Part shown: piece by piece, positions 1,832 through 12,804 of the stretch
Numbering within the stretch: the stretch's first letter is position 1
How the letters are laid out: every line of letters begins with the position of its first letter
Virus record (IMG/VR): IMGVR_UViG_3300028590_000011
Location: 16,040 to 80,039 of that record
Reading direction: 5' to 3' (one strand)
Source of the DNA: a virus
Length of the DNA: 64,000 bases
The notes under the pieces: model-generated
What the model was told of the DNA's origin: nothing
Database searches by the model: none
The model's input: only the letters and a program-made list of their open reading frames with translations
Position numbers and translations under genes: made by a program

Positions 1832-2130
1832 GCACCGTCACGGAGGAGCTGTACGTCCCCGAGGACATCGACAAGACCGCGCCGTTCACCATCGCCACCT
1901 CGTACTGCACGGGTCGGACCACAGTGGACTACCGGACCACTGCTCGCTCGGCGGTGGTCCACTACACGCACAAGATCACCTCAGGCGTGCGCTGCGAGGA
2001 CCAGAACATCGCCGGTGACGTTCCCGTTCACATCCGGCTGGTGTCCTACATCAGCCGCTACAAGGACGGCGAGATCCGGCAGCACATCGACTCTGGACCA
2101 CTGATCTGCCCCTGCACGAGCGCCGAGTGA
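1828..2130 (+). CDS. hypothetical protein
   Basis: ATGA overlap. Confidence 0.6.
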   Translation: MSTVTEELYVPEDIDKTAPFTIATSYCTGRTTVDYRTTARSAVVHYTHKITSGVRCEDQNIAGDVPVHIRLVSYISRYKDGEIRQHIDSGPLICPCTSAE

Positions 2131-2232
2131 CCGCTCTCGTCCTCATCATCTCGTTCGCCGTCATGGTTGTAGCGCTCACCTATGGGTGGCTACGCAGCCG
2201 TGGCGGCGAACAGTCGTCTACAGGAGAAGAAC

Positions 2233-2361
2233 ATGGGTGATATCGGAGACAACCCGCGCGAGATCGAGCTCGTGCCGGTGCCGGAGACCTCTCCGCTTCC
2301 GGAGCCGATCAAGCTTCCGGAGCCCGTCAAGGAGCCTGAGCCGGAACCGGTGGCTGCCTGA
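2233..2361 (+). CDS. 42-aa Pro/Glu-rich peptide (MGDIGDNPREIELVPVPE...PEPEPVAA), not in ORF track
   Basis: AGGAG RBS at 2222; TGA overlaps ATG of next gene. Confidence 0.7.
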   Translation: MGDIGDNPREIELVPVPETSPLPEPIKLPEPVKEPEPEPVAA

Positions 2362-3131
2362 TGACCGGAGAGACCTTCAACAACTACCAAGTTGACCGCC
2401 CCGTCCATCTGGGAACGATCAGGGGCTACCGAGCTTGGGGTGTTGACGACCTCGGTCGTCTGACTCCAGCCACACGCGCCGACTACATCTGGAGTCCTGG
2501 CATCAACCGCGCGGTCTGTAAGTGCGGTAACTACGCGAGGAACGTGGCCGCGCGGCACCACAGTTGCGGGTTCTACGCCTACTTCAGTGGCAGCAACGAC
2601 TACGCGAAGACTGGCGACATCCACGGGATCATCGAGGCCTGGGGAACTACCACGGTCGGTGACCGTGGCTTTCGCGCCGAGTACGGCAAGATCCTCGCCT
2701 TCGTGGATCCCGTGGTGGTCTACCGCGTGAAGTGGGTCCACCAGTTCGCCAAGTGGTGCCACCGCAGGGACTACGAAGTCTTCTTCGGGCTCGGCGGGCT
2801 CCTTCTCGGGCTCGGCAGTTTGATCGGAGGCATCTTGTGCATGATCTTCGGGCCAGATTGGTCGACTCAGCTCTGCGGTGTCGGCCTGGCGCTCGGCATC
2901 TTCGGTCTGGTGCACGCGATGCACTCGGATACCTGCGAGTACGAGTCGAAGGACTATCGCAAGATCCAGCTGGTCAAGCACAACTACCCAGATGTGCAGT
3001 GGTTCCGCAACCACCGGGAGATGATCCGCGCCTTCCCAGTCGAGGAGCCATCGGTTCCTGAGGTCACGCCCGAGAACTACTCGGACTTCTGGACCACCAC
3101 TGGCACGCCGAATCAGCGCAAGGACAACTGA
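2361..3131 (+). CDS. membrane protein with Cys/His-rich soluble domain (GYRAW...CKC...HHSCGFYA...WG...GFRAE)
   Basis: Motifs as listed; two hydrophobic segments near the C-terminus. Confidence 0.7.
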   Translation: MTGETFNNYQVDRPVHLGTIRGYRAWGVDDLGRLTPATRADYIWSPGINRAVCKCGNYARNVAARHHSCGFYAYFSGSNDYAKTGDIHGIIEAWGTTTVGDRGFRAEYGKILAFVDPVVVYRVKWVHQFAKWCHRRDYEVFFGLGGLLLGLGSLIGGILCMIFGPDWSTQLCGVGLALGIFGLVHAMHSDTCEYESKDYRKIQLVKHNYPDVQWFRNHREMIRAFPVEEPSVPEVTPENYSDFWTTTGTPNQRKDN

Positions 3132-3158
3132 ATACCCAACCAACAACAGGAGATGAGA

Positions 3159-3920
3159 ATGGCACGAGCAACGACAAAGACCGCCAACCAGGAGCCCACT
3201 CTGGAGCAGCTCCAGGAGGAACTGGCGGCAGCGAAGCGCAAGTTGCGTGAGCAGCGGATGACCACCGTGCAGGTGGCGCAGAAGTACGCGGCGCAGCACA
3301 ACCTCTGCTCCGTGGTGGACCAGGCGCTCACCGAGGCAGGTCTGCTCGGTGGCAGTGTCAGCAAGAAGGTCTCGATGTTGATCCCGGTCGAAGTCGTCAT
3401 GGGCATCGATGGCGATCTGGTCGAGAACATGACCGAGGAGGAGATCAAGCAGGCCATCGCGGAGATGGCCAAGCCCACGTCCGTCAACTGGGGTGGATCC
3501 ATCGGTCCGGTCACCTCGGTGGCCAACGGACGAGTCCGTCGTACCGAGCCTGTCTCCACTTTCGGAGAAGTGCAGGTGCTCAGTGTCGAGGATCCGCCCT
3601 CTCTGACCACCGTGAGCAACGACAACGGCTGGTCGAACCCGCCCAACGGGCACGTCGCGCTGTACACGGCCCCCGAAGGGCGGAAGCTGCACTTCGTCAC
3701 GGCGGTGGAGACCAGTCATCACCGCGCGGTTGCGGTCGAGATCAACGGAATGACCTTCTACACCGTCCGCACTCCGCTGTGTGGTGCCTCGGTGTCGTAC
3801 TACGGCGCTCCGTGGGCCATTGACTCGCCGCGCAAGGTCAGCGTAGGCACGCGCGATGGCATCTGCCAGGGCTGCCGTGACCTCGCGCAGACGCGGTACG
3901 GATGGAGGCTCGGCCGATGA
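3159..3920 (+). CDS. hypothetical protein with N-terminal coiled coil and C-terminal H/C/CxxC putative Zn site
   Basis: AGGAG RBS after CA-rich leader; start 3153 or 3159. Confidence 0.7.
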   Translation: MARATTKTANQEPTLEQLQEELAAAKRKLREQRMTTVQVAQKYAAQHNLCSVVDQALTEAGLLGGSVSKKVSMLIPVEVVMGIDGDLVENMTEEEIKQAIAEMAKPTSVNWGGSIGPVTSVANGRVRRTEPVSTFGEVQVLSVEDPPSLTTVSNDNGWSNPPNGHVALYTAPEGRKLHFVTAVETSHHRAVAVEINGMTFYTVRTPLCGASVSYYGAPWAIDSPRKVSVGTRDGICQGCRDLAQTRYGWRLGR

Positions 3921-4501
3921 CCGGCACCGACGAGGCGGTCGAGACTGCCAAGCAGGCGATGGAGGACCAGCGTCCTCTGAACGCCACGCAGGGTCGCAAC
4001 CTCCAGAGGATCGTGAAGAACGACTTCGAGAGGCTGAAGGCCGAACTGGAGCTCTTCCGGGTCGAGGAGAGGACTCGCCGTGAGCAGGAGATCCGGGAGA
4101 ACTACCGGACCAGCAGAGAGAGCCGAACCACGCTGGAGAACGAGATCCGAGTTCTCAACCGCCAGTACCGGGCGGAAGCGGAGCGCCTCCGAGGCAGAGC
4201 GCGCGAGATGGGTCTCACGGTCAACCAGGGCCTCACAGCTCCGAGCGAAGTCGTGGTCTTCGGCGAGGAGCGCCTCAACCAGGACATCCAAGCGATGTAC
4301 CGCGAGGTCAACGGAGATGTGAACACTGCTCTCCGTACCGCAGAGGCCAAGTTCTACGAGGCCGAGCGGCTCGTGCTCATGGCCACCATCACGACCCAGG
4401 CAGAGAAGATCCTGTCCGGCATCCCCACGTCTCAGCAGCTCATGGCTGAGGCATACGAGCAGCGCGCCAAGCGCAAGGAACTCACAGGAGGAACACAGTG
4501 A
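3917..4501 (+). CDS. coiled-coil hypothetical protein
   Basis: ATGA overlap; E/R-rich heptads. Confidence 0.7.
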   Translation: MTGTDEAVETAKQAMEDQRPLNATQGRNLQRIVKNDFERLKAELELFRVEERTRREQEIRENYRTSRESRTTLENEIRVLNRQYRAEAERLRGRAREMGLTVNQGLTAPSEVVVFGEERLNQDIQAMYREVNGDVNTALRTAEAKFYEAERLVLMATITTQAEKILSGIPTSQQLMAEAYEQRAKRKELTGGTQ

Positions 4502-5241
4502 GCATCTCTCTGGAGAAGCGCACCGAGAACGCCGGGATCAGCCTGGTGAAGGTGATGTCCGAGGCCGCAGCACAGGGTCTGAACGTCGATGACCTCACTG
4601 CGCAGTGCGTGCTGGTCATGGACTTCTCGGGCTCGATGGACTACCGCTACCGCAGCGGTGAGGTCCAGCAGCTCGCAGAGCGGACGCTGGCGCTGTCCCT
4701 GACCGGTCTGGACGACGACGGGAACATCCAGATCCACTTCTTCCACACCAAGGTCTTCCCGGAGATCGAGGTGGACGCGTCGAACTACACCGGCGCGGTG
4801 GACGAGTTCACCCGCAAGAACACCATGGGTGGCACCGCCTACGCTCCCGCGATCCGACAAGTCATCGAGAGCGTCACCGGTGGCAAGACCAAGAAGAAGG
4901 GTCTGTTCCGAAAGGAGACCCCAGCGGCTCCGGACGGTCCGGCCATGCCGACGCTGGTCTTCTTCGTCACGGACGGCGAGCCGAACGACCGGCAGGAGAC
5001 CATCCAGCTCCTGAAGGACGCTTCGGGGCTGCCGATCTTCTGGCAGTTCCTCGGCGTCGGCTACTCCCCGGAGTTCCTGAAGGAGCTCGACACCATGGGC
5101 GGACGTGTCCTCGACAACGTCGGCCTCACCGAGGTGCCCTCGACGGAGTCCATGTCCGACGAGGAGTACTACGAGACGGTCTTGAAGGAGTTCGTCTCGT
5201 CCTGGGTGCCTGCGGCTCGCGCCAAGAGCATCATCGCGTAA
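4498..5241 (+). CDS. von Willebrand factor A domain protein (TerF-associated vWA type)
   Basis: MIDAS motif DFSGSM, GGT, FVTDGEP, and IFWQFLGVG...FLKELD...DNV typical of vWA-TerF-like domains. Confidence 0.85.
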   Translation: MSISLEKRTENAGISLVKVMSEAAAQGLNVDDLTAQCVLVMDFSGSMDYRYRSGEVQQLAERTLALSLTGLDDDGNIQIHFFHTKVFPEIEVDASNYTGAVDEFTRKNTMGGTAYAPAIRQVIESVTGGKTKKKGLFRKETPAAPDGPAMPTLVFFVTDGEPNDRQETIQLLKDASGLPIFWQFLGVGYSPEFLKELDTMGGRVLDNVGLTEVPSTESMSDEEYYETVLKEFVSSWVPAARAKSIIA

Positions 5242-5272
5242 CCCTTCCAACCAACAAGGAGAGCAACACATC

Positions 5273-5527
5273 ATGACGAACACCGCAGTGGAGCAGGGGA
5301 TGCTCTGCATCATGGACAAGACCGGCGACACCCGCATCATGTGGGACCCCCGCAACGCCGACGAGGTCGACATCGCCAAGGCCGCGTTCAAGAAGGCCAA
5401 GGACAAGGGCATGGTCGCCTACGCCGTCGACAACACCACCGGCGAGAAGGTGGACGGCGAGGTCATCCGCGAGTTCGACCCGGCGCGCGGCAAGATCATC
5501 ATGGCCCCGCAGCTCGTCGGCGGATGA
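5273..5527 (+). CDS. ubiquitin-like small protein ending in LVGG
   Basis: 84 aa; apparent beta-beta-alpha-beta-beta-beta pattern; C-terminal di-glycine directly before the stop; strong RBS. Confidence 0.65.
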   Translation: MTNTAVEQGMLCIMDKTGDTRIMWDPRNADEVDIAKAAFKKAKDKGMVAYAVDNTTGEKVDGEVIREFDPARGKIIMAPQLVGG

Positions 5528-5820
5528 CCGACGAGATCACTGAGGAGACCGTCCTGCGGCACATCTGCGAAGGGTGCGGCAAGGACGAGAACCTGACTGT
5601 TGCCGAGGCCTTCGAGGCGGGGTGGGACTACCCACCCCGTCTTGGGGTCTTCGGAGTCGTCTCCCCGCGTACCTGCGGGGAGTGCGGCATCGAGAAGACG
5701 CTCTGGTGGCGAATCCAGACCGGCGAGGTTCGTCCCGACGACCTCAGCTCGGAGGAGATGGAGTTCATCCAACGGGTCGTCAACGAACCCGAGTCCATCC
5801 TCGTGAAGGAGGAGAAGTGA
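5524..5820 (+). CDS. Zn-finger protein (CEGC...CGEC)
   Basis: ATGA overlap with the GG-protein stop; two CxxC motifs. Confidence 0.7.
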   Translation: MTDEITEETVLRHICEGCGKDENLTVAEAFEAGWDYPPRLGVFGVVSPRTCGECGIEKTLWWRIQTGEVRPDDLSSEEMEFIQRVVNEPESILVKEEK

Positions 5821-5821
5821 G

Positions 5822-6661
5822 ATGCCACGCATCAGCCAAGAAGTCGCAGCGGAGGTCGTGGTGGACCTCACCGAGACTGAGCGCGGGATCATCCCGTCCG
5901 ATGAAGTCCAGAAGGTCGTCTGGCAAGGGTGGGCTGACGTGACACCCACCTGGACCCAGTGGACCAACAGCACCACCGTCACCTACCGGATCCAGCAGGA
6001 TCGGGTCTGGAACCGATGGACTGTGGACGACGCCTGGACCGTCATGAACCCGGCGATCAACGGGACCATCACGTACAACACCGCGTTCACCACGACGCAG
6101 GACTACGTGTGGACCAATTGGAACGCCCAGAGCGACACCGTCTACACCCGGACGTACCACCAGATGGACACGGGTCGGACGGCCGAGGAGATCCAGCACC
6201 TGGCGGATCGTCGTCAGGCGCTGAACGAGGCCGAGTCGCGTCGTCGGCTCCGGTATGAGCAGGAGCGCGAGCAGGCTGCTGCTCGGGCCCAGGCCCATGA
6301 CCGGGGCATGGAACTGCTGAAGATGGTCATGTCCCATGAGGAGCTGGCGCTCTTCGAGATCGCGGGCAAGATCCATGTCCGTGGTTCCGAAGGTGGTCTG
6401 TACGAGATCGACACTCAGTACGGAGGCGTGCACGGCAACGTCGTGCAGGTCGATGAACACGGGTGCCAGCTCGGACGGATCTGCGTCGCACCGCAGATGC
6501 GGCTCGACAGCGGCGTGCTGCCGCTCTCGGACGGCTACGTCGGTCAGTACCTGGCGATCAAGCACCAGGAGGCCCTGTTCCGGGCGACCGGCAACTGGTC
6601 TCAACGGCGTACCTGCCAGCAGCCGAACGTCCCGATCCTCGGGGAGCAGCGAGCGGCATGA
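5822..6661 (+). CDS. hypothetical protein: Trp/Thr-rich N-terminus, coiled coil, C-terminal domain with ICVAP and LPLSD motifs
   Basis: AGGAG RBS; sequence composition. Confidence 0.75.
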   Translation: MPRISQEVAAEVVVDLTETERGIIPSDEVQKVVWQGWADVTPTWTQWTNSTTVTYRIQQDRVWNRWTVDDAWTVMNPAINGTITYNTAFTTTQDYVWTNWNAQSDTVYTRTYHQMDTGRTAEEIQHLADRRQALNEAESRRRLRYEQEREQAAARAQAHDRGMELLKMVMSHEELALFEIAGKIHVRGSEGGLYEIDTQYGGVHGNVVQVDEHGCQLGRICVAPQMRLDSGVLPLSDGYVGQYLAIKHQEALFRATGNWSQRRTCQQPNVPILGEQRAA

Positions 6662-6846
6662 GCTACGAGGGTGGAGCGGGGGATGGTCACATCGACATCC
6701 CCCGCTTTGCTCTTGTCCCGCGAGGTAAGCAGCGGGTCAAGGGCCGGGTCCTGTCATACGAAGGGAACGGCTACTTCACCGTTCTCATCCCAGGTGACAT
6801 CAAGGTGTTCATGCACCGTGATCGTCTGATCTTCGCCAACAAGTAG
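6658..6846 (+). CDS. small beta-rich hypothetical protein, possibly SH3-like
   Basis: ATGA overlap. Confidence 0.55.
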   Translation: MSYEGGAGDGHIDIPRFALVPRGKQRVKGRVLSYEGNGYFTVLIPGDIKVFMHRDRLIFANK

Positions 6847-6853
6847 GAGAGAG

Positions 6854-7027
6854 ATGCTCAACCATCCTTTGGCTAAGCACATCTTGTGGGCGGTCGTGCT
6901 GGTCGTCCTTGCCTGCCTCGGCATCGTCGCGTTCGGTGACGAGCAGGCAGTGGAAGTAGCAAGCGGAGTGCTGGCCGGTATCGGCCTCTGCGTCGTACTG
7001 ATCATCTTGATGATCCCAATGTTCTAA
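6854..7027 (+). CDS. small two-TM membrane protein (not in track)
   Basis: AGGAG RBS; MLNHPLAKHILWAVVLVVLACLGIVAFG... Confidence 0.65.
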   Translation: MLNHPLAKHILWAVVLVVLACLGIVAFGDEQAVEVASGVLAGIGLCVVLIILMIPMF

Positions 7028-7035
7028 GGAGAGAA

Positions 7036-7389
7036 GTGAACACCGTACGAATGAATCGAACCGAGCTGCTGGAGCAGCTTCGGGACAACCAGACCAAGCA
7101 CGCGGCTGACTACCGCGAGGCGATGGTGGTCTGGAAGAAGAAGGCAGCCAAGGCTCTGGCGAAGGCTGCCAAGAAGGCGGAGAAGGGCAAGATCACCCTC
7201 AACCCCCTTCAGGACCTCCCCAAGCCCGTCCAGTTCATGGAGGAGTACGACGACGCCATCGCGCGTGTCATGGTCGACACCCGCGAGGAGTTGGAGCTGG
7301 ATGACCACCAGTTCCGGCAGTGGGTCCAGGACAAGTGGGTCTGGCAGCACCAGTTCGCTGCCTCGACCTCTCTCTACAACGGGAGGTGA
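7036..7389 (+). CDS. hypothetical phage protein
   Basis: AAGGAG RBS, GTG start. Confidence 0.7.
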   Translation: MNTVRMNRTELLEQLRDNQTKHAADYREAMVVWKKKAAKALAKAAKKAEKGKITLNPLQDLPKPVQFMEEYDDAIARVMVDTREELELDDHQFRQWVQDKWVWQHQFAASTSLYNGR

Positions 7390-7390
7390 C

Positions 7391-7645
7391 ATGAAGACGC
7401 GGATCATCGGAGCCGTCCTTCTGGGGGCGGCTCTTCTCATCGGTGGCTGCGCCAAGGTGTCGGAGCCGTACAACGACGCTGACCGAGGCAAGACCAACAA
7501 CGACAAAGCGGACATCGTCACCTTCCCGGACGGGTTCTCCAACGTCGCCACCAAGTGCGACCACGGAAACCGTGTGTACGTCATCTACAAGGGCGACTCG
7601 GCCTACGGCTCCGTCGCCGTGGTACCCAACGCGGAGGATTGCTGA
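7391..7645 (+). CDS. lipoprotein
   Basis: Signal peptide MKTRIIGAVLLGAALLIGG-C with lipobox Cys; GGAGG RBS. Confidence 0.75.
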   Translation: MKTRIIGAVLLGAALLIGGCAKVSEPYNDADRGKTNNDKADIVTFPDGFSNVATKCDHGNRVYVIYKGDSAYGSVAVVPNAEDC

Positions 7646-8052
7646 TGGTGAGGAGCGCCCACGGCACCAGGTCTGCTGACTTCGTCAAGGAGCAGGGTTG
7701 GCGGGTCGGTGACCGCATCGTCGGTGGTCCGATCATGGGCGGTCCTAACAAAGACAGGGTGGTGGAGGCTGGGTTAACCATCGTGATCACCGCCATCGGC
7801 GAGGAGATGGTGCTCACGAAGACCGTCAAGAGAGAGCCCAGCCCTTATGGCTACCGCGACCGAGAGATGCCCATGACTTTCACGGAGCGCGACTGGGAGA
7901 AGATCGAACCCTTCTCGATCGAGAAGGCGATCCAGGAACTCAACAGACACGGTCGGAACTCGTTGACCGGGCGCGCGATTGATCTGTTGACCGACGTGTT
8001 GCTGGTGCACACAACTACAGAGGAGAGGAAAGAGCCGATATGGCCGAAGTGA
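7645..8052 (+). CDS. hypothetical protein
   Basis: TGATG coupling. Confidence 0.6.
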   Translation: MVRSAHGTRSADFVKEQGWRVGDRIVGGPIMGGPNKDRVVEAGLTIVITAIGEEMVLTKTVKREPSPYGYRDREMPMTFTERDWEKIEPFSIEKAIQELNRHGRNSLTGRAIDLLTDVLLVHTTTEERKEPIWPK

Positions 8053-8237
8053 CGGAGATGACCGAGGAAGAGCGCCTCGCTGAGTTCGAGACGCTGTGCG
8101 TCGAGTACAAGCTCCAGAAGGATGCGTTGGTGAAGGCGTCCCTGGCCCTCTTGGAGTCCGGAGTGCCGTTCCCCACCGTGCTCCGACTGATGGCTCAGCA
8201 CGGCGCTGTCGACCACGCCCCGAAGGGGATGGCATGA
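8040..8237 (+). CDS. hypothetical protein
   Basis: RBS and gene overlap. Confidence 0.6.
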   Translation: MAEVTEMTEEERLAEFETLCVEYKLQKDALVKASLALLESGVPFPTVLRLMAQHGAVDHAPKGMA

Positions 8238-8425
8238 GTGAGAACACCGCGCTCGCCGTCTACATGACCATGCTCATCCTCACGCTGATCGTCGCTGGCG
8301 TCAGCGCCTTCGCCTACTACAAGAGCAAGGGCGAGATGGGCGGGATCGTGTTCATCCTGGCCGCATGTGCCGCTATCGCGCTGGGTTCGTATCTCATCGA
8401 CGCAGCGGAAAGGGCACTCGCGTGA
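8234..8425 (+). CDS. small two-TM membrane protein
   Basis: ATGA overlap; hydrophobic segments. Confidence 0.65.
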   Translation: MSENTALAVYMTMLILTLIVAGVSAFAYYKSKGEMGGIVFILAACAAIALGSYLIDAAERALA

Positions 8426-8541
8426 TCAACGACATGTTGCAGGTTCTCTGGACCCTGCGCTTCCACATCGGCTTCGGGCTGCTGCTCGTTCTGGGTGGCT
8501 ACCTGTACGCCTGCGGCTCTACCGTGAGGATGGAGGACTGA
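8422..8541 (+). CDS. 39-aa membrane peptide (not in track)
   Basis: GTGA and TGATG couplings on both sides; hydrophobic core. Confidence 0.5.
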   Translation: MINDMLQVLWTLRFHIGFGLLLVLGGYLYACGSTVRMED

Positions 8542-9242
8542 TGGAGGTCCCGGACGGACACTTCAGCTTGCCGATGGCGATGATGTTGGCTCGGTCCAAC
8601 GTCGTCTCTGAGGCTCATGAGATGGACGAGAGGATTCGTCCATTCCCGGAGCAGTACGCCATGGGTCCTGGTTGCTACGGGATCGTGGCGAGTTCCAGGT
8701 CCATGGTCGAGCAGGACTTCACACTCTTGAAGCTGCTCGATCCCGAGGAGCACAAGGACGCCTTCCCGAACTGGGAGGAGCGGTTGCAACGCTCCTACGT
8801 TCTGTGCGAGTGGCTCTCCAACGACGACCCCGAGGGCGACATCGGCTGGTTCAGCCGCGTGAAGCTGGTGGAGATCACCGAGGAACAGTACGCCGAGGTG
8901 AAGACCTGGATCAGGGAAGACGCGCTCCCCGACGAGCCGCCCGACTGGTTGGACGAGGCCTACGCGCTCTACACCGAGCGGCTCTCCAAGATGGCCCCGG
9001 ACGATGTCACCGTGAACGTCCTGTGCGGTGAGTGTGGGTCGCGCAAGGTCGAGATCCACATCTACCACGCCATCCGCAAGGCTGCCCCCGCTGGTCAAGT
9101 CGAGAAGGACGGCAAGACCGTCTTCCTCCCCATGGGTCATCGCGGCTCGTCCGACTGCGTCGCGCAGATCCACCTGCACTGTCAGGACTGCAACGCGCGA
9201 CGCGACCTGGACGACGACGAGATCGGCTTCGACGCCCACTGA
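8541..9242 (+). CDS. hypothetical protein with C-terminal Zn ribbon (CGEC...CQDC)
   Basis: GGAGG RBS before ATG 8541; CxxC pairs. Confidence 0.7.
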   Translation: MEVPDGHFSLPMAMMLARSNVVSEAHEMDERIRPFPEQYAMGPGCYGIVASSRSMVEQDFTLLKLLDPEEHKDAFPNWEERLQRSYVLCEWLSNDDPEGDIGWFSRVKLVEITEEQYAEVKTWIREDALPDEPPDWLDEAYALYTERLSKMAPDDVTVNVLCGECGSRKVEIHIYHAIRKAAPAGQVEKDGKTVFLPMGHRGSSDCVAQIHLHCQDCNARRDLDDDEIGFDAH

Positions 9243-9250
9243 GGGTAGAT

Positions 9251-9274
9251 GTATAGCATGAAATGTGCTATACT
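9251..9274 (+). promoter_or_regulatory. extended -10 promoter (TGcTATACT) inside an inverted repeat GTATAGCA-N7-TGCTATAC
   Basis: Seen directly; AT-rich intergenic patch. Confidence 0.65.
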
Positions 9275-9312
9275 TATCACGTCCCTGCGAGAGCTATGCC
9301 TTCGCACACCAC

Positions 9313-9346
9313 AGCCCCAAGCTAACCCGGCTTGGGGCTTTCTTTA
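9313..9346 (+). terminator. intrinsic terminator or attenuator
   Basis: agccccaagc / gcttggggct stem followed by ttcttt. Confidence 0.7.
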
Positions 9347-9367
9347 TGTCGAAAGGAAGTGACAGAC

Positions 9368-10474
9368 ATGGCTACTGCCACTGTCATTGCGGACGGGCCT
9401 CCGATGACGGAGCCCGTTGCGCACAAGAAGTCCTCCAAGGGCTTCTGGCGTTCCATCGGGGACGCCATCTCCAGCGCGGGTCACCGCGCATGGGAGGCCA
9501 TCAAGTTCGGTGGCCGCAAGACCCTGGAGGGTCTGAAGTTCTTGGGTCGTCAGGCCGTCCGTGGAGCGAAGGCATCTGGAAACCTCGCTCTCCGTGGGGT
9601 TGGCTACCTGGGTGCTGGGATCATGTGGCTGGCGCTGACCATCCTGAACGTCGCCACCGCGCTCGTCGTGGGCGTCGTGATGGTGCTGGCCATGATCATC
9701 GTCGGCGTGCTCATGCTCGCCGGTGTCTTGATCGGCAAGGTGATCGACATCCTCGACTACTGGGTGCTCGGCTCCTTCCGTTGGCTCGCTCTCGGGCGAC
9801 CCGCTCCGTTCAATGAGTTCCTCGCGGACCGTCGCGCTGCTGCGCTGGACAAGAACATGATCCGCATCGAGAAGCTCGGCAACTGGGTCATGCGCAAGTT
9901 CAACCTGCCCACCGCAGAGGACTACACGCGACTCCTGGACGACGACATCGTGGTCGAGGACTACGACTACGACCCGGACGACCCGATCCGCATCAAGCAG
10001 CAGCAGGCGCTGGAGGACAAGGTCGCGGTGCGGTTGCAGGAGGACGTGGACAACAAGACCATGTCCTTCCCCGGTGGTCGAGCCCGCATGGTCGACCACG
10101 ACGACCCGTTCGCGGAGGGCACCGACTACACCGCCAGCATCCCGCTGATGCTCGCACCGGAGAACGAGGGCAAGACCTTCATCGAGTACGACTGGACCTC
10201 CTACGTCCACGACCCGGACTTCCCCGTGATGATCGACATCATGGAGAACACCACGATGGTTCCTTCGGAGAAGGCCTACTGGGTGGGTCGCCGGGAGATG
10301 ATCAAGTACTACAAGGACAACCCGGACGGGCTGGACGAGCACGGTCGGGCGTGGGCGGCGGTCTACCACCGCTACCGCAAGCAGACGGCACTGCCCATGA
10401 AGTACATCCGTACCGGCTTCATGGACATGGTGAACGAGCTGAAGGCCGCTCGCCGGTCCGCTGCCTCGGTCTAG
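9368..10474 (+). CDS. membrane protein with long hydrophobic hairpin and acidic C-terminal domain
   Basis: GAAAGGAAG RBS before ATG 9368; about 60-aa hydrophobic stretch. Confidence 0.75.
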   Translation: MATATVIADGPPMTEPVAHKKSSKGFWRSIGDAISSAGHRAWEAIKFGGRKTLEGLKFLGRQAVRGAKASGNLALRGVGYLGAGIMWLALTILNVATALVVGVVMVLAMIIVGVLMLAGVLIGKVIDILDYWVLGSFRWLALGRPAPFNEFLADRRAAALDKNMIRIEKLGNWVMRKFNLPTAEDYTRLLDDDIVVEDYDYDPDDPIRIKQQQALEDKVAVRLQEDVDNKTMSFPGGRARMVDHDDPFAEGTDYTASIPLMLAPENEGKTFIEYDWTSYVHDPDFPVMIDIMENTTMVPSEKAYWVGRREMIKYYKDNPDGLDEHGRAWAAVYHRYRKQTALPMKYIRTGFMDMVNELKAARRSAASV

Positions 10475-10912: not shown

Positions 10913-11167
10913 ATGGCAACACTCACTCGTTTCACCGCCGACCTCGTCACCCAGGAGGCGCTCTCCGAGCGTCGGGTCGAGATCATCTCGCGTCAGCTGA
11001 CCGAGTACCTCCACACCCTCATCGTGGAGGACGACGACCGCCCGCACCTGGAGGTCGACAAGAACGCCCACGGCCACGTCCACGACACGGCCGATGGTGA
11101 CCGCTGCGGCTACTGCCTGGAGGAGTCCAGGGACTACCGCAACGGCGACTCCGTCGTCAACGCGTGA
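10913..11167 (+). CDS. hypothetical protein with HxHxH and CxxC
   Basis: CA-rich leader plus RBS; GC3-rich. Confidence 0.7.
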   Translation: MATLTRFTADLVTQEALSERRVEIISRQLTEYLHTLIVEDDDRPHLEVDKNAHGHVHDTADGDRCGYCLEESRDYRNGDSVVNA

Positions 11168-11211
11168 CGACAACCTTCCAACAACACACCACAGAGAGAG
11201 ATCAAGACAAC

Positions 11212-12804
11212 ATGCCTTCCATCGAAGCGAACACGTTCACCGACCGCGTCTCCAAGAAGAGCACCCAGGAGACCCTCGCCAAGCTGCGCGAGATCGGCGG
11301 TGGCAAGATCACCGAGGAGTCGGGGATCAAGTACCACAACGGTCGGGAGATCCTCCTGCCCGAGGGGATGGCCCTGAAGACGGCGGCGAAGCTCGTCACC
11401 GCGCAGGCCGTCTCCATGGAGGAGCAGCACGACTTCACGAAGGTCTTCAAGTACCGGCCTCTGGACGGCGCGTACGCGTTGCAGGAGACCCTCCGTGAGA
11501 TCTTCGGCCTGTCCGGCACGGGCAAGGCCATCCACACGATGTTCGGCAGCCAGCCGCCGCAGTACATCAACGTGGAGATCGGCATCGGCGTCGAGGTCCG
11601 GGTCCCCTGGGGCCACATCGACTTCCCGCCGTTCGAGGGCATGTTCATGACCGGGGCGAGCCACGACCCGGACTACGGCCTGCTCTTCCAGGTGACCTGC
11701 CGCGCACCGAAGAAGTACGAGCCCGAGATCGAGGGCCTCTGGCTCGCGGTCGAGGACACCCTGCGCCGCAAGTCCATCTACAAGGGCAAGGCGATCGTCG
11801 GCGTCGGCCGGGTCACGCGGGAGGGCATGGAGAGCCCGAAGTTCCTCAACCCGTTCGCCGTCGACCCCAACACCGTCGCCTACTCGCAGGACGTGCTCAA
11901 CGCCCTGCGGTCGTCGCTGTGGGGCCCGATCCGCACCGCCGAGCTCCAGCGGGCGGCGGGGCTGAAGCTCAACCGCAAGACCCTGCTGTACGGCACCTTC
12001 GGCACCGGCAAGTCGCTGGCCGGTGCACTCACGTCCCGCGCGGCGGTCAACAACGGCTGGACCTTCATCCAGACCAAGACCGGCGACGAGGACCTGGAGA
12101 AGGTCCTGAAGACCGCCGAGCTCTACGCCCCGGCCGTGGTCTTCATCGAGGACATCGACACGCTCATCGAGTCGGACCCCTCGGAGATGGCCAAGCTGCT
12201 GGAGCTGTTCGACGGCATCGGCAGCAAGGACAAGGAGGTCATGGTGCTGATGACCTCCAACTACATCGAGGCGCTCAGCAAGGGCATGACCCGCGTCGGG
12301 CGCATCGACGCGGCGGTCGAGATCGGTGACCTCGACCAGGGCGCCATCCGCAGGCTCATCTCGAACTCCTTCGAGGACACCGAGCCCTACGACGGCAGCG
12401 TGGACCACGGCATCTTCGAGGCCATGTCCAAGCGCCTCAACACCTCGGACTTCAACGTCAAGAAGGGCAGCCAGCTCTCCGACGACGTGGACTTCGAGAA
12501 GGTCCTGGAGTCCATGAAGGGCTACGAGCCCGCCTTCATCATGGGCACGTTCAACCTGGCGAAGTCCAACGCCATCATCCGCACGGAGTCGCTCAACTTC
12601 GAGCTGACCACCGAGGACTTCGTCCTGGCGGCGGACACCCTCCGCAACCAGCACGACACCCACCAGAACGCGGCGGACCGCCCCGCCGTGGACACCTTCG
12701 GGCAGTCGCAGAAGAAGCTCATCGCGGAGACCGTGGCCGAGCAGCTCCAGGGCCACAAGGTGGACCTCAGCGACGAGGGTCAGCTCATCACCCTCGAAGC
12801 CTGA
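11212..12804 (+). CDS. AAA+ ATPase (BCS1-like)
   Basis: Walker A GTFGTGKS, Walker B VVFIEDID, sensor-1 TSN, arginine finger RVGRID; alternative start 11164. Confidence 0.9.
   Translation: MPSIEANTFTDRVSKKSTQETLAKLREIGGGKITEESGIKYHNGREILLPEGMALKTAAKLVTAQAVSMEEQHDFTKVFKYRPLDGAYALQETLREIFGLSGTGKAIHTMFGSQPPQYINVEIGIGVEVRVPWGHIDFPPFEGMFMTGASHDPDYGLLFQVTCRAPKKYEPEIEGLWLAVEDTLRRKSIYKGKAIVGVGRVTREGMESPKFLNPFAVDPNTVAYSQDVLNALRSSLWGPIRTAELQRAAGLKLNRKTLLYGTFGTGKSLAGALTSRAAVNNGWTFIQTKTGDEDLEKVLKTAELYAPAVVFIEDIDTLIESDPSEMAKLLELFDGIGSKDKEVMVLMTSNYIEALSKGMTRVGRIDAAVEIGDLDQGAIRRLISNSFEDTEPYDGSVDHGIFEAMSKRLNTSDFNVKKGSQLSDDVDFEKVLESMKGYEPAFIMGTFNLAKSNAIIRTESLNFELTTEDFVLAADTLRNQHDTHQNAADRPAVDTFGQSQKKLIAETVAEQLQGHKVDLSDEGQLITLEA

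Follow-up and report, generated by a model that had tools for sequence, protein, structure and literature searches.

The window analyzed here is a stretch of 64,000 nucleotides (bases 16040 to 80039) from the IMG/VR virus record IMGVR_UViG_3300028590_000011 (80,039 bp, 99% complete, 62% GC). The subject of this study is a pair of genes on its plus strand that encode a putative ubiquitin-like protein (Ubl) with a C-terminal Gly-Gly, hereafter the GG protein, and a larger partner protein with an invariant cysteine. Both genes lie among four consecutive open reading frames (ORFs), all of them present as described in a first-pass annotation made from the nucleotide sequence: a vWA-TerF-like protein of 247 amino acids (positions 4498 to 5241), the GG protein of 84 amino acids (5273 to 5527), a four-cysteine zinc-ribbon protein of 98 amino acids with the sequence motifs CEGC...CGEC (5524 to 5820), and the partner of 279 amino acids (5822 to 6661). 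The vWA protein matches Pfam family PF10138 (vWA-TerF-like; E value of 6e-45, 154 bits at a cutoff of 29.4) and phrog_5359 of PHROGs (E value of 8e-56), and the elements DFSGS, GGT, and TDG of its metal ion-dependent adhesion site (MIDAS), which had been reported as intact, can all be read in the sequence. The strong ribosome-binding site previously noticed ahead of the GG gene is a Shine-Dalgarno sequence, AAGGAG, at 5256 to 5261, 11 nt ahead of the ATG and accompanied by a CA-rich leader. The codons at 5519 to 5524 specify the terminal Gly83-Gly84 of the C terminus ...KIIMAPQLVGG, which are conserved in homologs. The stop codon TGA of the GG gene (5525 to 5527) overlaps the ATG of the zinc-ribbon gene as ATGA, and the partner ORF begins 1 nt past the zinc-ribbon stop.

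The identity of the GG protein as ubiquitin-like, i.e., beta-grasp-like, is suggested by its homologs, an AlphaFold2 (AF2) model, and fold matches, and the layout of the partner is based on alignments, an AF2 model, and matches of hidden Markov models (HMMs). A Trp-repeat region of low model confidence (WQGW, WTQW, WNRW, and WTNW; residues 34 to 100, positions 5921 to 6121) is followed by long coiled-coil-like helices (residues 92 to 116, 121 to 169, and 172 to 181; 6095 to 6364), which were assigned with DSSP on the AF2 model and are reflected in coiled-coil fold matches. The C-terminal alpha/beta core (residues 183 to 256; 6365 to 6607) resembles, according to the AF2 model and VIA-align, the ubiquitin-conjugating (UBC) fold of E2 enzymes. 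The codon of Cys221, which is invariant in the alignments and central to the complex model described below, is located at 6482 to 6484, and that of the likewise invariant Asp237, at the start of the helix predicted to pack on the sheet of the GG protein, is located at 6530 to 6532. The sequence motifs HGNV...ICVAP...LPLSD...QYLAI...GN, which had drawn attention to this protein, are all present.

The real unit at this locus consists of two genes (5273 to 5527 and 5822 to 6661) and not of four, as had originally been proposed. HMMs built from our own alignments of the family were run on all ORFs of 41 viral loci from two IMG/VR scans (GC content of 0.32 to 0.69; contigs of up to 436 kb), and in 39 of them, the GG gene is immediately followed by one for a homolog of the partner's C-terminal domain, in agreement with the suggested co-occurrence of a GG gene with a Cys-domain gene. 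The two exceptions are decayed copies: locus L037 has a GG-family domain that lacks the GG and is joined to one half of a partner domain, and L042 has a truncated GG domain fused to a zinc ribbon. The distance from the GG stop to the partner start ranges from -8 to +8 nt in 25 of 29 nonredundant pairs, often as GTGGCTAG, and the remaining four pairs carry insertions at this junction, i.e., 294 nt with the zinc-ribbon gene in the window, 327 nt with an HNH gene in L003, 377 nt in L024, and 87 nt in L040. Because the HNH-type gene of L003 (6322 to 6579; CxxC...HH motifs recognized by eye) occupies the same junction as the zinc-ribbon gene of the window, this site seems to be a hot spot for insertions, and the zinc-ribbon gene looks like one of them. 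Homologs of the vWA and zinc-ribbon proteins are absent from all 41 related loci, and among 36 nonredundant loci, no additional gene is conserved at a distance of up to 6 kb from the module. The vWA and zinc-ribbon genes are hence neighbors in the phage of the window only and lie outside the conserved module. Nor is the block a closed operon: since there is no terminator-like site on the plus strand between 2000 and 9313, the vWA, GG, zinc-ribbon, and partner genes are part of a longer co-oriented block. What is left of the proposed ubiquitin-like tagging operon is the coupled GG protein and Cys partner without an E1, but not the membership of the vWA and zinc-ribbon proteins.

The copy number of the two genes varies among the loci. 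L002 and L010 contain two GG-partner pairs each, and partner paralogs outnumber the GG genes in L030 and L040 (3:1) as well as in L015 (2:1), which would fit one tag for several specificity factors. Two jumbo-phage contigs, L038 (5965 to 7071) and L039 (435 and 231 kb), encode an in-frame fusion of the two proteins (...PPMQGG-LMVML...), whose linker is rich in Thr, Ser, Ala, and Val and takes the place of the WxxW repeats. A BLASTP comparison of four complete carrier genomes (80 to 107 kb; GC content of 0.35 to 0.66) revealed the GG protein as the only family common to all of them, an indication that the module is self-contained and relies on a conserved factor of the host. From this finding and the pairing across loci, it follows that the module moves between unrelated phages and that its small protein is unusually conserved. 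The GG and partner genes move as a pair among phages that are otherwise unrelated, in most cases with translational coupling.

Conservation of the terminal Gly-Gly, a further point raised at the outset, was found in close homologs and in most of the wider family. All 15 close homologs (55 to 93% identity) are GG-terminal, i.e., the motif is invariant in the close-homolog set of 16 sequences. A phmmer search of 1.84 billion cluster representatives returned 955 clusters at an E value of ≤1e-3 (91 at ≤1e-10), nearly all with a match that extends to the last residue of the protein, and 135 of the best 150 of these 955 representatives end in GG with the tail [PQ]x[VAQ]GG. Among the 15 exceptions, 9 have between 1 and more than 100 residues beyond the GG (five with one residue, one with two, one with five, and two with long extensions), four end in xG, and two are without the motif. 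One of the long extensions is a DUF6197 domain. This domain (PF19698) is fused to the GG domain in two representatives, behind the GG in P0064 and ahead of the GG domain in P0155, and DUF6197 genes are located a few kilobases from the module in several high-GC loci (L005:3455-3814, L007:338-1146, and L006:6910-7305); in the phage of the window, DUF6197 was not detected. Tandem two-domain forms of the GG family occur in P0074 and P0142, with the terminal G(G) on the last domain only, a layout that recalls ISG15 and FAT10. A search for longer homologs yielded no fused forms close to the GG protein of the window.

A scan of 185,579 bacterial and archaeal genomes with the GG protein alignment (A1) detected no relative and therefore provided no prophage or host clue. 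When 50,697 GenBank phages were searched with tblastn, nothing was found for the GG protein of the window or for a partner from L040, and the representative P0085 gave a single match, to one uncultured 595-kb phage. As far as these sequence searches reach, the module is almost absent from cultured phages. Agrobacterium phage Atu_ph07, a lead from BFVD, was rejected, as its genome is without a GG-family match and the partner profile gave only a weak coiled-coil match. Because of this near-absence and the lack of any match in Pfam, PHROGs, NCBIfam, and PADLOC, both families represent unexplored sequence space.

In 39 homologs of the partner (alignment A3), the residues Asn206, Cys221, Pro234, and Asp237 are invariant, and the residues that remain in a set of 42 nonredundant partner sequences drawn from all loci are Cys221, Asp237, the LL in the first helix, and an AN close to the end. 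No histidine is invariant among the homologs. The wider family of 42 sequences keeps the Asn in about 60% of its members, and a C.HP motif is common. In the clade of the window, an HGN lies 15 residues ahead of Cys221, its His not being conserved in the wider family, and the motif reads VHGNVVQVDEHGCQLGRICVAP, which by eye might be taken for the HPN...C signature of E2 enzymes with an inserted hairpin. Cys221 itself sits 14 residues before the helix formed by residues 235 to 248. Almost all partners encoded directly after a GG gene contain two to five WxxW motifs in the first ~100 residues, over the whole GC range of 0.32 to 0.69, and the extra partner paralogs are without them. Some partners have a CPxC...PC N-terminal extension ahead of the Trp repeats (L003:6589-6700 and L005:6224-6330); a kinship of these extensions with the zinc-ribbon protein of the window was considered and rejected on comparison.

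The AF2 model of the GG protein has a predicted local distance difference test (pLDDT) score of 79.6 and shows the order bbabbb, with strands at residues 9 to 15 and 18 to 24, a helix at 29 to 44, and strands at 47 to 52, 59 to 65, and 74 to 79, which matches the order of strands and helix read from the sequence in the first-pass annotation; the tail has a pLDDT of 53 in the monomer model. The lists of fold matches consist almost entirely of beta-grasp proteins (FAT10, ubiquitin, SUMO/SUMO2, NEDD8, Ufm1, UBX, Raf-RBD, PB1, protein L/G, and MoaD), with weak scores (Foldseek E value of ≥0.02, template modeling scores of 0.34 to 0.44, and VIA-align Z of ≤5.0). The order of the elements and the nature of the matches thus speak for the proposed beta-grasp fold, but the scores themselves do not establish it. 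The partner is modeled with a pLDDT of >90 for residues 120 to 270, and its N-terminal region is poorly modeled. A helix (121 to 169) is followed by a short helix (172 to 181) that corresponds to helix 1 of a UBC-like domain, strands at 183 to 187, 193 to 197, 207 to 210, and 216 to 221, a loop, and two helices at 235 to 248 and 250 to 256. In this model, the order of elements in residues 172 to 256 is that of the UBC fold, i.e., an N-terminal helix, a four-strand antiparallel meander, the Cys loop, and the crossover helix. In an exhaustive VIA-align search, in which the top matches cover residues 156 to 255, Ubc9 came out first (Z of 4.8; root mean square deviation of 3.5 over 88 residues), followed by RWD domains (Z of 4.2 to 4.3) and the UEV domains of VPS37A (4.3) and Vps23 (4.0), and at a lower level by FANCL (3.4) and the E2-like part of BubCD and the E2 part of Cap2 (3.3 each), and the calibration of VIA-align allows only a common arrangement to be claimed at such Z values. 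All top fold matches outside the coiled coil are UBC-fold proteins. An E2-like fold of the partner is the best lead from these predictions, short of established.

For the complex prediction, residues 150 to 279 of the partner (alignment A3) and the GG protein (alignment A1) were used with our own, unpaired alignments. The pair obtained an interaction score (ipSAE) of 0.78, compared to 0.01 for the best of three controls; 58 of 80 solved complexes attain the corresponding mark, as do 2 of 110 mismatched pairs, counts that are rough given our own alignments. Contacts agreed to at least 95% between runs, and the pLDDT of the partner was at least 80. The predicted interface comprises His204, residues 221 to 226, 228 to 234, and 236 to 238, and helix residues 240 to 257 of the partner, and on the side of the GG protein, the tail (78 to 84) together with residues 12, 14 to 19, 45 to 53, 62 to 64, 74, and 76. 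In the model, tail residues 79 to 81 pair antiparallel with partner residues 222 to 225, which takes Gly83-Gly84 past Cys221, and a face of the GG protein sheet packs on the helix following the cysteine. In the closed E2~Ub conjugate, ubiquitin packs on the crossover helix of the E2, and the predicted geometry is much like this arrangement. The model supports binding and a position of the GG tail at the invariant cysteine segment, which the first-pass annotation had suggested to look for; it cannot show a bond. Two motifs of the GG protein stand out as the best conserved, GDT[KR]..WDP and EFDP (residues 20 to 26 and 67 to 70). They lie largely outside this interface and could serve as structural caps or form a further surface for binding.

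The E1/ThiF enzyme by which the C-terminal GG of Ub, ThiS, MoaD, and SAMP proteins is activated was not visible in the window, and profile searches for ThiF, Prok-JAB, and UQ_con were negative for the whole 80,039-bp phage record. Of five other complete carrier phages, four likewise lack both ThiF and JAB. The fifth, a 436-kb jumbo phage, encodes in succession a JAB peptidase, a protein of 89 amino acids with the C terminus ...TPFG, and an E1 of the ThiF type (L044:1489-2358 and L043; 335 to 337 kb of G005), about 190 kb from its GG module, and this cluster looks like a separate Ubl-like system. As the phage has no E1, the pair uses an activating enzyme of the host, charges itself, or does not conjugate.

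Our preferred, still tentative reading is that of an E1-less phage tagging module with a Ubl and an E2-like protein, which is probably charged by a MoeB/ThiF-type enzyme of the host. The first gene would encode a small Ubl of the beta-grasp type whose flexible tail ends in the invariant Gly-Gly, and the second gene would encode a protein with an N-terminal WxxW region, a long helix, and a C-terminal UBC-like domain with its invariant Cys and Asp. The two are predicted to form a complex in which the tail runs along the strand and loop that start at Cys221. Because the phage is without an E1, the Gly-Gly carboxylate would have to be activated by a MoeB/ThiF-type E1-like adenylyltransferase of the host; it could then be passed to Cys221 as a thioester, and the Ubl would be moved to lysines of host or phage targets, which might be chosen by the variable N-terminal region of the partner. 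Shared E1-like enzymes (MoeZ, TtuC, and UbaA) each serve several GG-ended beta-grasp proteins. MoaD ends in ...PPVTGG, and the tail consensus PPxVGG of the GG family resembles this C terminus. An adenylation of the phage Ubl by a host MoeB/ThiF-type enzyme would account for the absent E1 and for the fact that the small protein is so strongly conserved among unrelated phages. For the conjugation of SAMP and TtuB, a shared E1 is sufficient and no E2 is needed. The more general proposition, that phages of very different hosts carry a minimal tagging system of a Ubl and an E2-like Cys enzyme that brings its own targeting region, without a phage E1, and have either hijacked a universal host MoeB/ThiF-type enzyme or evolved a new activation route, should be taken with somewhat greater reserve.

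Several observations weigh against this reading. Neither the GG protein of the window nor any of 101 family members has a match in Pfam at E values up to 1, and the family is without a match in PHROGs, NCBIfam, PADLOC, and PDB-sequence profiles; for the partner, searches of Pfam, NCBIfam, PADLOC, PHROGs, and PDB-sequence profiles were equally negative. The modest fold scores of both proteins, including the limits set by the VIA-align calibration, point in the same direction, and a Foldseek search of the partner against the PDB returned nothing below an E value of 1.8. The HPN motif of E2 enzymes is absent from the partner, whose corresponding Asn, as described above, is not universal. The use of a host E1 is purely what we infer, and the covalent chemistry of the GG protein and Cys221, which the complex model cannot demonstrate, is a proposal only. 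The in-frame fusions of L038 and L039 and the forms with one to five residues beyond the GG appear, from their sequences, to be a better fit for self-processing.

A noncatalytic heterodimer, in which a pseudo-E2 of the UEV/RWD type clamps the Ubl and its GG tail and acts as an adaptor or regulator through its WxxW and coiled-coil regions, the cysteine being structural, is rather unlikely and yet the most probable of the alternatives. RWD and UEV domains are among the best fold matches, with the same Z as Ubc9, the phage encodes no E1, the HPN-like Asn is not universal, the predicted noncovalent interface is strong, and L038 and L039 produce both parts as a single chain. UEV and RWD domains have the alpha-beta4-alpha topology that is predicted for the partner, but they are noncatalytic and without an active cysteine, whereas 42 sequences from unrelated phages all have Cys221, which in the complex model is located at the interface with the tail and not in the core. 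In addition, a terminal GG in 135 of 150 clusters is hard to explain by binding alone. An E1-independent self-charging, in which the cysteine would cut after the GG of a precursor or fusion, form an acyl-enzyme without ATP, and transfer the Ubl to lysine, is considerably less probable. It has a precedent in E2-CBASS (CBASS, cyclic oligonucleotide-based antiphage signaling system), where a lone E2 processes the C terminus of the cGAS protein and proceeds through a Cys thioester to a Lys isopeptide without an E1 (10.1101/2022.05.25.493364). The natural fusion in the two jumbo-phage contigs, the nine representatives with residues beyond the GG, and the His residues near the cysteine, i.e., two residues past it (C.HP) in most of the family and in the HGN (His204, at the interface) in the clade of the window, are all consistent with this explanation. 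However, 135 of 150 representatives, including the protein of the window, stop exactly at the GG, so that there is no bond to cleave and no energy source for self-charging, and an invariant His is lacking. The predicted likeness to E2-CBASS, an E2-fold Cys enzyme without an E1 and a C-terminal Gly tail inserted at the cysteine, is accompanied by clear differences (10.1101/2022.05.25.493364; PMC12948482): the substrate there is a CD-NTase and not a Ubl, and at least one residue after the Gly as well as a catalytic His are needed. Such a residue occurs only in the fusions and a few extended forms of the phage family.

Slightly less probable again is a function in counter-defense, in which a decoy or inhibitor that mimics Ubl and E2 would jam the Bil, Bub, or type II CBASS (Cap2) systems of the host or a MoeB/ThiF-dependent pathway. 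The genes are carried by phages, with a patchy occurrence among unrelated ones, bacterial Ubl systems are known to act in defense against phages (10.1101/2023.09.04.556158), and the E2 parts of Cap2 and Bub are among the fold matches of the partner. Such defense systems are sporadic, whereas the GG protein is 40 to 60% identical across hosts of very different GC content; moreover, a decoy needs neither a partner with an invariant cysteine nor several partner paralogs, and PADLOC gave no match. A sulfur relay appears improbable. In this case, host MoeB/IscS-type enzymes would thiocarboxylate the Ubl as they do MoaD, ThiS, and TtuB, and the sulfur would be handed to the partner cysteine for a phage-specific thio-modification. 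The GG protein shares with MoaD, ThiS, TtuB, and SAMP, which are served by MoeB, ThiF, TtuC, and UbaA, a size of 80 to 100 residues, a predicted beta-grasp-like fold, and a ...PPxxGG tail that is MoaD-like, the nearest named Atlas cluster is of the ThiS family (a weak 0.75), and MoaD is among its weak fold matches. Against this stand the missing match to PF02597 (ThiS/MoaD) in all 101 family members, a partner that is unlike MoaE, ThiG, and TtuA, and the lack of a conserved PP-loop or radical-SAM gene nearby; the obligate neighbor is a UBC-like Cys protein and not MoaE, ThiG, or an E1. The idea that the vWA and zinc-ribbon proteins are working parts of the tagging, e.g., as receptor and E3-like adaptor, is largely refuted and has the lowest probability of all. 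The vWA domain of Rpn10 binds ubiquitin, and the spacing in the phage of the window is tight with its ATGA coupling, but neither gene recurs in the 41 related loci, an HNH gene occupies the same junction in L003, and the block is embedded in a longer stretch without a terminator-like site. A homolog of the zinc-ribbon protein also stands alone in Microbacterium phage Pumpernickel (gp264; 47% identity), and tblastn with the GG protein of the window found no homolog in the GenBank phage collection that contains Pumpernickel. Three further candidates were set aside: Pup, which ends in GGQ or GGE and is disordered, a double-glycine leader peptide, whose GG is internal and precedes the core peptide, and a toxin-antitoxin pair, for which there was no supporting feature.

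Compared to known systems, the E1-less module that we favor would occupy a place of its own. Ubl-E1-E2-JAB operons of the Bil, Bub, and 6E types (PMC1779556; 10.1101/2023.09.04.556158; PMC10557695) place, much as predicted for the phage module, a beta-grasp protein with a C-terminal Gly beside a UBC-fold protein with a conserved cysteine, in the setting of conflict between prokaryotes and phages. An E1 is a constant part of these operons and a JAB peptidase a usual one, and they are bacterial defense genes with parts that Pfam recognizes, whereas the module described here is encoded by phages, is without an E1 or JAB, and has no sequence match in profile libraries. The tail assembly protein I (TAPI) of phages Lambda and T1, which is accompanied by the JAB/NlpC protein gpK (PMC1779556), is likewise a phage protein with a Ubl-like domain and a conserved C-terminal Gly. 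In contrast to TAPI, which belongs to the tail gene cluster, has a JAB/NlpC peptidase at its side, and carries an extra C-terminal domain, the GG protein has no fixed place among tail genes, and its companion is a Cys protein, without a JAB.

No description of a pair of a GG-terminal Ubl and a Cys partner was found in the literature searched, where the bacterial Ubl pathways (Bil, Bub, and type II CBASS) are host defense systems with their own E1, from which a compact pair on the phage side would differ. If the proposed activity exists, it would represent a Ubl conjugation system of bacterial viruses, used against or within the host. Conjugation would mean that viruses of bacteria also use ubiquitin-like tagging, would make the dependence of E2-type enzymes on E1 testable in a minimal system of two proteins, and would add a new data point on the origin of ubiquitin signaling. 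The experimental handle is clear, with two small proteins, one cysteine, and one Gly-Gly. As Lys74 is the last tryptic site of the GG protein of the window, a conjugate would leave IIMAPQLVGG on the target lysine after trypsin digestion and not diGly.

With respect to the surroundings of the module, the stretch of the window is contained in six DNA sequencing runs from soil metagenomes, and no RNA run is listed. The zinc-ribbon protein has a weak match to Zn_ribbon_TFIIS in Pfam, below the cutoff. A 117-amino-acid protein of phrog_34511 (7036 to 7389), whose function is unknown, directly follows the partner gene in L025 and also occurs in L033. Homologs of a 546-amino-acid AAA ATPase (11164 to 12804; PF00004, E value of 1.6e-13) are located less than 6 kb from the module in L003, L010, and L035. 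The sole terminator-like hairpin on the plus strand within positions 2000 to 9500 is located at 9313 to 9339 and closes a co-oriented series of small genes, over 7 kb long, to which the module belongs. In L022, L024, L031, and L037, the module is found 2 to 3 kb upstream of one common family of about 500 amino acids, which is the large terminase according to Pfam in the two members that were scanned (L022 and L024).

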